From assembly GCA_934193515.1 (NCBI GenBank), contig CAKPVJ010000003.1, forward strand, positions 68,931 through 132,930: 64,000 nucleotides of DNA, read 5' to 3'. The DNA is from an uncultured Megasphaera sp. (lineage in GTDB: Bacteria; Bacillota; Negativicutes; Veillonellales; Megasphaeraceae). The position numbers were made by a program, and so were the translations under genes. Of this stretch, positions 14,238 to 45,507 are shown one piece after another. Below the pieces are notes generated by a model, which did not search any database, was not told the DNA's origin, and saw only the letters and a program-made list of their open reading frames with translations. Each line of letters starts with the position of its first letter. Within the stretch, counting starts at the first letter, position 1.

Positions 14238-14862
14238 ACATATTTTGCCGGCAGACATAGAAAAACGGAGCATGGAAATCATCGAAGAAGAATTGGGTGA
14301 AATCCAGCTGCCGGCGGCAGAAAAAAATATTATCAAGCGCGTCATCCATACGAGTGCCGATTTTGAATATGCCCGCACGCTGCGCTTCAGCCCGGATGCG
14401 GTGGCCAAAGGATTAGCAGCACTGCAGCAAGGATGCACGATTGTTACCGACACCAACATGGCCTACATGGGTATCAGCCAGCGGGGCTTGGAAACACTGC
14501 ACAGCACGAAAGTATGCTTTATGGCTGACGCAGACGTAGCCCGCATGGCCAAAACGCAAGGAACCACACGGGCTGTGGCCTGCATGGATAAAGCCTGTGC
14601 CATTCGCGGCCCCTTGATTATTGCCGTAGGCAATGCGCCAACGGCATTGCTGCGGCTTGACGAATTAATCCGGGCAGGAAAAATACATCCAGATCTTGTC
14701 ATTGGCGTACCCGTAGGGTTTGTCAATGTCGTCTACGCCAAAGAAATTATCATGCAGTCCGGCGTCCCCTATATCGTAGCCAAAGGCCGCAAAGGCGGCA
14801 GTACGATTGCTGCGGCCATTTGCAACGCGTTAATTTATACATTGACTCGGAAAAAAGCATAA
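14227..14862 (+). CDS. cbiC: Cobalt-precorrin-8 methylmutase CbiC/CobH
   Basis: Internal ATG 14227 (MKIEHILPADIEKRSMEIIEEE..) and CbiC family similarity. Last gene of the block. Confidence 0.8.
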   Translation: MKIEHILPADIEKRSMEIIEEELGEIQLPAAEKNIIKRVIHTSADFEYARTLRFSPDAVAKGLAALQQGCTIVTDTNMAYMGISQRGLETLHSTKVCFMADADVARMAKTQGTTRAVACMDKACAIRGPLIIAVGNAPTALLRLDELIRAGKIHPDLVIGVPVGFVNVVYAKEIIMQSGVPYIVAKGRKGGSTIAAAICNALIYTLTRKKA

Positions 14863-15163
14863 GATAAAAAATATATAACGCGTATGTTCTATTACAGGAA
14901 GATATGCGTTTTTGTTTCACTTCATCGGTATATATCATCCAGTATTTTGATTTATACGTACGCATATACGGGCATAAAAAATACGTGTAAACCTAGCAAA
15001 ACAGCCATTTTCAGCTGTACCAACTTTACGATGTAACGCGTTACCTTTATAGATAAGAATAAGAAGAGATAAGAAAAGAGAAGAAAAAATATATAGGTGT
15101 TATTTTTACCAAGATATATGTGACGTACTTTTTCTTTCTTTTTGATATAACCTATGGTACAAT

Positions 15164-15201
15164 AAAAAAAGAGATAGTCCGATGGTGGTACATCGGCTCT
15201 C
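15164..15201 (-). terminator. Bulged hairpin followed by U7 on the minus strand; probable 3' end of the toxin mRNA
   Basis: Minus strand reads GAGAGCCGATG-TACCAC-CATCGGACTATCTC then TTTTTTT. Confidence 0.35.
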
Positions 15202-15233
15202 CTCTATTGTTGTAATTTTGAAGAAGGCCGTGT

Positions 15234-15257
15234 ACCGCAAGGTATGCGGTTTTTTTC
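15234..15257 (+). terminator. Rho-independent terminator (ACCGCA-aggta-TGCGGT + T6) oriented for + strand transcription
   Basis: Perfect 6-bp stem plus a U-run. There is no + strand protein gene upstream, which fits the 3' end of an antisense sRNA convergent with the toxin gene. Confidence 0.4.
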
Positions 15258-15275
15258 AATTTATGTAAGAGTAAA

Positions 15276-15353
15276 TTACTTACGTACTGAAATAATCAGC
15301 ACAACTAATGTAGCAAAAGCTATCATCAAAGATAATGCTTCGTATACACTCAT
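15276..15353 (-). CDS. 25-aa hydrophobic peptide MSVYEALSLMIAFATLVVLIISVRK; candidate TxpA/BsrG-family (Hol-Tox) type I toxin
   Basis: Hand translation of the minus strand. Canonical SD AGGTGA sits 5 nt upstream of the ATG. The N-terminal M-S-V-Y-E-x-L-x-x-M-I-x-F motif matches B. subtilis TxpA/BsrG. It has a single TM helix and a basic tail, and is below the 60-aa cut-off of the ORF track. Confidence 0.45.
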   Translation of the reverse strand: MSVYEALSLMIAFATLVVLIISVRK

Positions 15354-15446
15354 GCTGATCACCTCGCTCTCGCAAGGAAAACCGAATACATCGAACTACC
15401 TCATATATAGTTTAGCAAATTTATGTTCGGACCGCAAGAGACAGGG

Positions 15447-15493
15447 GAACCATGGTTATATGTCGGTATACATATAATTCATGGTTCTTTTTT
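15447..15493 (+). terminator. Nested hairpin (GAACCATG..CATGGTTC) + T6, oriented for + strand
   Basis: 8-bp outer stem with an inner 7-bp palindrome (TATATGT/ACATATA), then TTTTTT. It lies just upstream (on the minus strand) of the toxin leader and just downstream of the corA 3' end. Confidence 0.3.
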
Positions 15494-15569
15494 GTCTTAT
15501 GGTATGAATAAAAAAAGCGTGTATGTTCCTTAGCGGGAATATACGCGCTTTATGTATGATATGTTTTTA

Positions 15570-16523
15570 TTAAAATAAATCTTTTCGCCACAGCATGGCA
15601 ATCGCTGCCAGGGCGCAAATGAGAGCGAGAATAATGATATAGAAAAAACCCATGGCGTTTTCTTGGAAAGGAACGGGGACATTGACGCCCCATAAGCTGA
15701 AGATAATGGTTGGTACGGCCAGGATAATCGTGATGGATGCCAAGAATTTCATGACCAAGTTCAGGTTGTTGGAGATGATGGAGGCAAAGGTATCGGACAT
15801 GCTCATGAGGATGTTGGAATACATTTCTACCATTTCGATAGCCTGTTTGTTTTCGATAATGACATCTTCCAGCAAATCTTCATCTTCTTCATACATTTTC
15901 AGCAGATGATGCAGGGAGGTGTTGCGCCGCAGCCGCATCAGGCGTTCCATAACGATACCGTTGCTGCGCAGTGCAGAGGTGAAGTACGTCAATGATTTCT
16001 GTAATTCCAGGAGCATAAAGAATTCTTTGTTGCGCATGGAATGCCGCAGGATTTCTTCGATATCGTCTGTGCGATGATTGATTTGCATCAAATACCGCAG
16101 GAAAAGCGTGGCGCTGCGGTAGAGAATTTGAAACAGGAATCGTGTTTTTTTGAATGTATAAAATAAAGGATATTTGTTTTGTGTAAAAGCCCGCATGACT
16201 TCCGTTGCCTGAATGCACAGGGTAATGATAAAGTCAGGCGTAATAAAAATGCCCAGCGGCAGTGTATCATAGCTGTCTGTTTCTAATATAATAGGAATAT
16301 TAATGACGACAAATATATAATTATCTTCTAATTCAACGTGAGAACGTTCTTCTGTATCCAGCGCGGTCTTCAGGACGTCAGTTGGGATTTCGGTGACCAT
16401 AGATACGAGCTGCAAATCTTCTGAATCAGGATTTACAACGTTGATCCATGACCCTTTTTCGGCAGAAGCCAAGGAAATATTGTCTTCCAAATGGCCATTA
16501 CTGTGTTTGTAAACTTGAATCAT
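15570..16523 (-). CDS. corA: CorA-family divalent cation (Mg2+/Co2+) channel with a GVN variant of the GMN signature
   Basis: 317 aa with a cytoplasmic N-domain and two C-terminal TM helices. The motif ..SLWGVNVPVPF.. sits at the position of YGMNF. SD GGAGAAG is upstream of the ATG, and a sigma70-like promoter (TTGACG-17-TATATT) is at 16583..16611. Confidence 0.75.
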   Translation of the reverse strand: MIQVYKHSNGHLEDNISLASAEKGSWINVVNPDSEDLQLVSMVTEIPTDVLKTALDTEERSHVELEDNYIFVVINIPIILETDSYDTLPLGIFITPDFIITLCIQATEVMRAFTQNKYPLFYTFKKTRFLFQILYRSATLFLRYLMQINHRTDDIEEILRHSMRNKEFFMLLELQKSLTYFTSALRSNGIVMERLMRLRRNTSLHHLLKMYEEDEDLLEDVIIENKQAIEMVEMYSNILMSMSDTFASIISNNLNLVMKFLASITIILAVPTIIFSLWGVNVPVPFQENAMGFFYIIILALICALAAIAMLWRKDLF

Positions 16524-43855: not shown

Positions 43856-45144
<1,289 letters not shown>

Positions 45145-45259
45145 GGCGGTTTCAGCATGTCTGCCTTATATAAATTCGGTTGACATTGCTTATCGATTAT
45201 GGTACACTAACACAAGAGCTAGAAGATAGCTGGAATTGTTTTTTTAGGAGGATTTTGTT

Positions 45260-45457
45260 ATGCACGGTAAAGTAAAATGGTTTAGCGCAGAAAAAGGTTA
45301 TGGCTTTATTGAAAGAGAAGATGGCGGCGATGTATTTGTACATTTTTCAGCTATCCAGGAAGATGGTTTCAAATCCTTGACTGAAGGTCAGGAAGTTGAA
45401 TTCGACATCGTTGATGGTGCTCGTGGACCGCAGGCTGCTAACGTAGTCAAAGCGTAA
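45260..45457 (+). CDS. cspA: Cold-shock protein (CspA family)
   Basis: 65 aa with RNP1 KGYGFI and RNP2 VFVHF. Promoter TTGACA-17-TACACT lies at 45181..45209. Confidence 0.9.
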
Positions 45458-45477
45458 GCAATATAGATCGACCTTTT

Positions 45478-45507
45478 AAACCGGTAACAGTTGTTACCGG
45501 TTTTTTT
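45478..45507 (+). terminator. Rho-independent terminator after csp (AAACCGGTAAC/GTTACCGGTTT + T7)
   Basis: Seen directly in sequence. Confidence 0.7.

Follow-up and report, generated by a model that had tools for sequence, protein, structure and literature searches.

The cbiC-corA intergenic region

In the 64,000-nucleotide stretch of an uncultured Megasphaera genome analysed here (the window), the convergent genes cbiC (plus strand, ending at 14862) and corA (minus strand, 16523..15570) are separated by an intergenic region of 707 bp. Within it, a module of about 315 bp (~15125-15440), composed of a 25-codon open reading frame (ORF) on the minus strand and a predicted antisense RNA on the plus strand, very probably represents a chromosomal type I toxin-antitoxin system of the same kind as TxpA/BsrG (Pfam Hol_Tox). 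It is a single copy, as neither a further such ORF nor a further module was found in the window. Both neighbouring genes have terminators of their own (~14878-14914 for cbiC and ~15510-15551 for corA), and they are flanked by cobalamin-pathway, DUF554 and smc genes. An earlier reading, made from the sequence only and without database searches (the sequence-only reading), had placed the toxin in an AT-rich island. The GC content of the intergenic region, ~0.33 against 0.48 for the window, agrees with the composition, while the term "island" is overstated, as the whole region is syntenic in a sister species.

Seventy distinct copies of the module, drawn from genomes of Megasphaera and from gut metagenomes, were compared. 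A first scan, of one genome per species, relied on a pattern of the 3' untranslated region (UTR) with fixed terminator stems, which entails an ascertainment bias; to counter it, a second sampling in metagenomes was anchored on the Shine-Dalgarno sequence (SD) and the start codon, which raised the set to 70. Ten conspecific contigs were obtained by look-ups anchored on CorA. The sister species is represented by a contig of a metagenome-assembled genome (MAG), L035, which matches the window at 92.5% over 8 kb and has the module in the corresponding position, its peptide differing by a single residue.

The putative toxin reading frame and its peptide

The features of the minus strand are the following:

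15437-15432, minus strand: putative -35 element of the toxin promoter (TTGCGG) by sequence reading, 17 nt upstream of the -10 element, with its TTG conserved in the modules
15417-15409, minus strand: putative extended -10 element of the toxin promoter (TGcTAAACT), kept as TGnTAnAnT across contexts
~15404 (transcription start) to 15164, minus strand: predicted toxin messenger RNA (mRNA), ~241 nt, ending at the U7 tract 15170-15164
15402-15389, minus strand: 5' strand of the 5'-3' helix, 14 nt, GAGGUAGUUCGAUG, pairing with CAUCGGACUAUCUC at 15184-15171
15377-15362, minus strand: SD-hiding hairpin CCUUGC-GAGA-GCGAGG, 6 bp, which buries the SD GAGGUGA (15365-15359)
15353..15276, minus strand: toxin ORF, ATG to TAA (15278-15276), 25 codons, peptide MSVYEALSLMIAFATLVVLIISVRK
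15201-15164, minus strand: intrinsic terminator of the toxin mRNA, with a CCGATG/CATCGG stem and outer AGAG/CTCT pairs (15201-15171) and U7 (15170-15164)

The ORF is present as the sequence-only reading had described it, with the SD GAGGTGA (15365-15359) 5 nt before the ATG. As read from the sequence, residues L7 to V23 of the 25-residue peptide make up a hydrophobic core, followed by RK at the C-terminus, that is, a single hydrophobic helix with a basic tail, and the tails of its homologues are likewise rich in K and R. The proposed kinship with TxpA and BsrG is borne out by Pfam, in which the peptide matches Hol_Tox (PF16935) with 40.1 bits (E = 3.2e-10, profile positions 1-22 of 34; gathering score 23.3 bits) and no other family at E up to 10. 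On the same model TxpA scores 31.3 and BsrG 34.5 bits, so the Megasphaera peptide appears to fit the family no less well than the toxins that founded it. Membership of the family of the competence inhibitor ComI (NCBIfam NF052249) was considered and rejected, at 19.1 bits against a cut-off of 55.

Homologues were searched with the peptide written twice in tandem, whereby the scores refer to one copy and the matches are limited to proteins with identical 5-residue words. PF16935 is present in all 40 homologues returned. The named ones are called "putative holin-like toxin" and come from Megasphaera sp., Veillonella, Phascolarctobacterium, Enterococcus cecorum and a Desulfitobacteriaceae bacterium; many of these gene calls carry a spurious N-terminal extension or, where the stop codon has been lost, continue into the 3' UTR. 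At one E. cecorum locus (L040, 2001-2132), 16 in-frame codons precede the Hol_Tox core, starting from an ATG with a strong SD (GAGGGTGG), and the internal MSVYE start has a weaker SD than this upstream ATG; either start may be in use, and the upstream part may serve as a leader. The exact 25-residue peptide has no record among 15 billion proteins, and no gene is called at the module site in the ten conspecific contigs, which is consistent with an unannotated element.

The toxin ORF is under strong purifying selection. Among 18 distinct coding sequences the ratio of non-synonymous to synonymous polymorphism (pN/pS) is 0.074, and the variable sites are distributed over the three codon positions as 6/0/15. 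Intact ORFs of 24-26 residues are found in 67 of the 70 distinct copies, the others being one truncated ORF and two without a stop codon. The peptide is thus conserved in related genomes, a point on which the sequence-only reading could have failed.

A predicted self-closing toxin mRNA

The predicted toxin mRNA folds with a minimum free energy (MFE) of -88.8 kcal/mol and z = -8.4 against dinucleotide shuffles, and the RNAalifold consensus of 21 copies contains 73 pairs with 99% of alignment cells paired. Its leader (15404-15354) holds the SD-hiding hairpin, which pairs in 100% of cells on the toxin strand against 90% on the opposite strand in the 70 modules. One of its pairs is G-C in 50 copies and A-U in 20, a compensatory change, and U.G/C-G and U-A/U.G variants occur as well, while the loop stays of the GNRA type (GAGA, GGAA or GAAA). 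In both the fold and the consensus, the AUG is paired with codons 17-22.

The two ends of the mRNA are predicted to be joined by the 5'-3' helix, the pairing of which reaches ~29 bp in the alignment consensus. On the toxin strand 98.0% of cells pair, against 88.5% and 77% on the other strand (70 modules), and an A-U pair has become G-C in three copies, giving one compensatory pair. This closed form is 13.6 kcal/mol more stable than the fold that keeps the terminator hairpin. The terminator itself, already noted in the sequence-only reading as a hairpin with U7 downstream of the stop codon, is real; its stems differ by 3-4% between copies and its loop by 34%, and its pairing holds on both strands (96.6% and 99.0% in the 70 modules).

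As the 3' strand of the 5'-3' helix lies inside the target of the antisense RNA, the toxin 5' UTR resembles the first half of that RNA, and the motif GAGRUAGUYCGAUG is present in both. From this overlap it follows that binding of the antisense RNA would open the 5'-3' helix.

The predicted antisense RNA

On the plus strand, the features are:

15155-15163, plus strand: putative antisense promoter, extended -10 element TGGTACAAT, conserved across copies
15170-15256, plus strand: predicted antitoxin small RNA (sRNA), ~87 nt, starting near 15170 and ending at U7
15171-15205, plus strand: stem-loop SL1, the complement of the toxin terminator hairpin
15206-15218, plus strand: linker, single-stranded by fold prediction
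15228-15256, plus strand: antisense terminator, with a 9-bp stem CCGTGTACC/GGTATGCGG and loop GCAA (15228-15249), followed by U7 (15250-15256)

The extended -10 element reads TGnTAnAAT without exception in 25 of 25 copies and TGnTAnA[AC]T in 69 of 70, with the variation of the box confined to the two n positions. The box lies beyond the end of the toxin transcript, and constraint on the toxin strand therefore cannot explain its conservation. A promoter scan for a sigma-70 site of the plus-strand RNA found none, which is explained by the fact that extended -10 promoters need no -35 element.

The terminator of the plus strand, which the sequence-only reading had put at 15234..15257, proved to be real and stronger than described. 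Its stem pairs in 99.5% of cells on the plus strand against 78.8% on the toxin strand (70 modules), because U.G and G.U pairs of the plus strand correspond to C.A and A.C mismatches on the toxin strand, and the rare changes at these two wobble positions keep the plus-strand pairing. A terminator hairpin maintained on one strand only indicates that the plus strand is made into RNA. As the sequence-only reading had noted, no plus-strand gene feeds this terminator, cbiC having ended at 14862 with a terminator of its own.

The predicted sRNA folds into two hairpins joined by the unpaired linker (MFE -38.2 kcal/mol, z = -5.4). Its whole length is complementary to the toxin 3' UTR, within which it lies entirely, its 3' end at 15256 being 19 nt short of the stop codon, without overlap with the ORF. 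The convergent sRNA with an overlap of ~90 nt in the sequence-only reading is accordingly retained as a prediction, with the overlap corrected to ~87 nt, that is, the whole sRNA. The duplex of sRNA and toxin mRNA is predicted at -172.5 kcal/mol. Over the module region Rfam gives no match at the gathering score, only sub-threshold ones that are at chance level or driven by the coding part. The support for the antisense hairpins comes from the pattern of conservation, the asymmetry between the strands and the comparison across genera; at the level of sequence, the locus has what is expected of a system of this kind, a convergent antisense gene that overlaps the toxin mRNA in its 3' portion.

Copies of the module and their contexts

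With one genome per species, the 3' UTR pattern was found only in Megasphaera genomes, including M. massiliensis NP3 and several Megasphaera sp., and in one MAG, the one to which L035 belongs. Eight of the ten conspecific contigs carry the identical ORF, and their intergenic region is 98-100% identical to that of the window. In the other two (L007 and L008) the homology is lost directly after the corA terminator, from 7021 (window ~15507 and below), and an identical CorA is followed, in the place of the window's module, by a type III restriction-modification system (ResIII/RE_endonuc and N6_N4_Mtase) and a DUF4391 gene. Both contigs end inside this island, which may have replaced the module or may only stand between it and corA.

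The loci of diverged homologues reveal other contexts: between a ruvC-adjacent gene and secDF, between a gene resembling pyruvate formate-lyase and a sigma-54 activator, next to Thoeris and insertion sequence genes, next to a resolvase and, as three tandem copies, next to a phage-type integrase (L013). Complete modules are commonly arrayed in tandem, two or three at a time, and repeat every ~335-395 bp (L013 2325-3274; L028, L030, L033, L036 and L046). As it is present in multiple copies, at many intergenic sites and often in tandem or beside mobile or defence genes, the module behaves as an addictive or selfish element. One of the copies of L013 (2988-3239) has a 16-nt duplication within its 5' UTR.

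Decayed copies are found as well. In L034 (6286-6473) most of the ORF is deleted and the antisense promoter, hairpins and terminator are kept, and in L029 (5438-5567) the antisense unit stands beside unrelated sequence in the place of the toxin. The sequence-only reading had regarded loss of the ORF with persistence of the hairpins as a sign against a toxin; loss of the ORF with retention of the antisense part is, however, the expected route of decay of such modules, and the two copies are read in this way.

Comparison with known systems

The module shares several traits with bsrG/SR4 of the SPbeta prophage of Bacillus subtilis. Both toxins fall into one Pfam family, each antisense RNA converges on its toxin gene and pairs with the 3' portion of the mRNA, and a short GC helix encloses the SD in either system; sequestration of the ribosome-binding site (RBS) in a GC helix, a feature of the BsrG/SR4 kind, is seen here in the 6-bp hairpin with its GNRA loop. 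In both, too, a 3' segment inside the region complementary to the antisense RNA is the pairing partner of the mRNA's 5' end (helix P1 of bsrG; PMC3834814). In the probed bsrG mRNA, nucleotides 1-35 pair with nucleotides 232-262, and binding of SR4 makes the 5' strand single-stranded (PMC3834814). In the Megasphaera module the counterpart of P1 appears in the MFE fold and in the alignment consensus, and it is present in four genera, Megasphaera included, with different sequences; since its 3' segment is inside the antisense-complementary region, binding of the antisense RNA would have to open it. The architecture that the sequence-only reading had likened to txpA/RatA and bsrG/SR4 thus matches bsrG/SR4 down to the 5'-3' helix.

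The differences from bsrG/SR4 are also considerable. The toxin has 25 residues against 38, the antisense RNA ~87 nt against ~180 nt for SR4 (PMC3834814) and the overlap ~87 nt against ~123 nt, and the antisense RNA lies wholly within the 3' UTR, short of the ORF. There is no RNA sequence similarity (15.6 bits on Rfam BsrG, RF01412, against a threshold of 55). Moreover, the host is a Firmicute with two membranes, and the module is multi-copy, often tandem and not bound to a prophage. An additional tightening of the SD helix upon antisense binding, as with SR4, was considered and is neither predicted here nor supported by constrained folding.

Another relative is txpA/RatA of the B. subtilis skin element, the antitoxin of which is ~222 nt long. 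It shares with the module the toxin family, the N-terminal signature and the convergence of the two RNAs at their 3' ends, while TxpA has 59 residues against 25 here, and Rfam gives no match to RatA at E up to 10. The RNase III-dependent decay of this system (PMC6562991) would be expected here by analogy.

In fst/RNAII (par) and hok/Sok, small hydrophobic toxins are likewise encoded by mRNAs closed by 5'-3' pairing. The toxin families differ, however, Hol_Tox being the only family that Pfam lists for the window peptide at E up to 10; the par RNAs use direct repeats at the 5' end for their pairing, and in the hok mRNA it is the 5' region that Sok targets.

The best Rfam match over the ORF (15279-15424, minus strand) is Listeria rli28 (RF01492), sub-threshold with 26.4 bits against 45. 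Read as a coding sequence, its consensus gives an SD and then xSVYERLTFMFAFATFVLMILDF, a peptide with 20.7 bits on Hol_Tox (cut-off 23.3). Neither the RNA match nor the protein match thus reaches its threshold, and the similarity is confined to the coding part; rli28 may itself be a toxin mRNA of the Hol_Tox family.

Entries named "putative holin-like toxin" by the Prokaryotic Genome Annotation Pipeline (PGAP) in Megasphaera, Veillonella and Phascolarctobacterium share the peptide core YEALSLMIAFATLVVLI, and the same RNA architecture surrounds them. These records give a protein name only, often with a false N-terminal extension, and contain neither an antisense RNA nor a type I system. The modules of Veillonella, Phascolarctobacterium and E. 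cecorum differ in their UTR sequences and share an extended -10 element on the opposite strand and a plus-strand terminator just past the stop codon; the SD is in a local hairpin, the MFE fold contains a 5'-3' helix of 22-29 bp, and the 5' UTR repeats the first part of the antisense RNA.

A review of 2019 confines txpA/bsrG-like systems to a few Bacillus species and a single Paenibacillus (PMC6562991). No paper was found that links TxpA with Megasphaera, and none among the papers listed links "holin-like toxin" with Negativicutes. The system is of a known kind, and its antisense RNA family is previously undescribed. The module would extend the type I systems of the Bacillus type, which have been studied by experiment, to the Negativicutes (Megasphaera, Veillonella and Phascolarctobacterium), Firmicutes with an outer membrane that are common in the human gut and mouth. 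The ~315-bp module with its antisense RNA family could enter Rfam or T1TAdb, and it corrects gene calls that extend or miss the ORF of 24-26 residues. In addition, the 25-residue peptide is near a minimal form of the Hol_Tox toxin family, which makes it convenient for studying how these peptides act. Although the kind of system will not surprise a specialist, the module lends itself well to experiments, given the clean evidence from comparison, a toxin of nearly minimal size and the hypervariable linker described below.

Proposed mechanism and alternative explanations

Comparison of the copies shows a selected small ORF, two selected promoters, a plus-strand terminator, an SD hairpin and a 5'-3' helix, from which the following mechanism is proposed. 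The extended -10 promoter of the minus strand would drive the ~241-nt mRNA for a single-helix membrane peptide of 25 residues, and that of the plus strand (15155-15163) the ~87-nt RNA that ends at a strong terminator. The finished toxin mRNA would close on itself, its first ~45 nt pairing with its own terminator region, and with the RBS and the start codon paired it would probably be translated poorly; the structure is drawn from the comparison of copies. By analogy with the Bacillus systems, the antisense RNA would touch the mRNA first through the unpaired linker, zip into a duplex of ~87 bp and displace the 5' end, and RNase III would cut the duplex, as for RatA/txpA and SR4/bsrG. If the antisense RNA were lost, the toxin mRNA would presumably accumulate and the peptide damage the membrane or envelope.

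Several points weigh against this interpretation. Both RNAs are predictions from sequence and folding. The toxicity of a 25-residue peptide is an extrapolation, the tested toxins having 38-59 residues, and degradation of the toxin mRNA is assumed by analogy only. The antisense RNA is about half the size of RatA or SR4, and complementary stretches in the Bacillus systems span 100-140 bp (PMC6562991). In the TxpA/RatA and BsrE-G-H families the antisense RNAs overlap the toxin ORF (T1TAdb paper, PMC8594479), an overlap that is absent here in contrast to the TxpA/RatA and BsrG/SR4 kind. In constrained folding, the SD and the AUG are paired whether or not the antisense target is blocked. Finally, the two antisense hairpins show no compensatory changes within Megasphaera, their stems hardly varying.

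The least improbable alternative is a harmless small membrane or regulatory peptide, ComI-like for instance, that is under antisense control and forms no addiction module. The weak ComI match, the shortness of the peptide relative to tested toxins and the fact that the wider Hol_Tox members are only "putative" toxins speak for it. The ComI score is, however, far under its cut-off, and toxic products are typically silenced in several layers, as is seen here, with the SD and AUG hidden, the mRNA closed and a conserved promoter for an antisense RNA; the decayed copies L034 and L029 drop the ORF and keep the antisense part, and the module has spread in multiple and tandem copies as addiction elements do. 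Such a harmless role is therefore regarded as unlikely. That no antisense RNA exists, and that the hairpins are bidirectional or leftover terminators between convergent genes, would suit a site between the 3' ends of cbiC and corA and the missing sigma-70 site in the promoter scan. It is nevertheless very unlikely, as both genes have their own terminators, the hairpins are kept in contexts without convergent genes, the extended -10 box persists in 69 of 70 copies with only its n positions varying, and the terminator stem is kept via U.G pairs that work on the plus strand only.

The family name "holin-like" and the integrase, resolvase or phage replication genes next to some copies could also suggest a phage lysis protein of the holin type or a prophage remnant. 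However, the window copy is enclosed by cbiC and corA and its surroundings contain neither lysis nor phage genes, and among 2.9 million viral contigs only one matches the 3' UTR pattern and two the coding pattern, which leaves a phage origin scarcely credible. A toxin-antitoxin module of the Hol_Tox kind is hence strongly preferred to all three.

A hypervariable linker

While the stems of the module hardly vary between copies (mean pairwise difference 0.00-0.04), the loops reach 0.25-0.35 and the linker 0.55, with pS at 0.40 in the ORF. Between the window and the sister species, 8 of the 13 linker bases (15206-15218) differ, against 0.225 at four-fold degenerate sites (P ~0.003, for a region chosen after the fact). 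The linker differs in every copy of the same genome, tandem copies included, while the stems are invariant and the promoters and the peptide almost frozen.

As it is unpaired in both predicted RNAs, the linker is a likely candidate for the site of first contact between them. A bolder idea, possible but doubtful, is that the linker and the loops form a copy-specific recognition code, and that the internal copy of the antitoxin's first half in the toxin mRNA competes with the antitoxin for the same target. If such a code existed, Megasphaera would hold partly independent toxin-antitoxin pairs that diversify under selection, like the incompatibility determinants of plasmids.

The flanks of the module

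Upstream of the toxin promoter lies one further structure:

15447-15493, plus strand: accessory interrupted hairpin with T6

The sequence-only reading had seen this hairpin correctly and placed it over the toxin leader; it is instead upstream of the promoter, the -35 element of which is at 15437-15432. In the sister species (L035) two pairs of the inner stem are changed on both sides with the pairing kept, and the structure thus appears to be selected. In the alignment it is absent from module copies in other contexts, and no plus-strand promoter that would feed it was identified. It could halt antisense transcripts that read through towards corA, and it may or may not be part of the module.

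The ~200 bp between the cbiC terminator and the module (14917-15125) are strongly conserved relative to the sister species, with few differences at 15024-15123. They contain a perfect 12-bp palindrome, GTAACGCGTTAC, at 15033-15044 and a purine-rich tract at ~15050-15090, and the strains L002 and L006 have a 9-nt insertion near 14961. A stem motif resembling GCGTATG/CATACGC is common to the terminators of cbiC, the antisense RNA and corA (14878-14914, 15228-15256 and 15510-15551), and 14893-14916 is 79% identical to 15233-15256; this could be chance or a local terminator style. Elsewhere in the window, the cspA thermoregulator (RF01766, 88.9 bits) at 45117-45507 on the plus strand is the only Rfam match above the gathering score.

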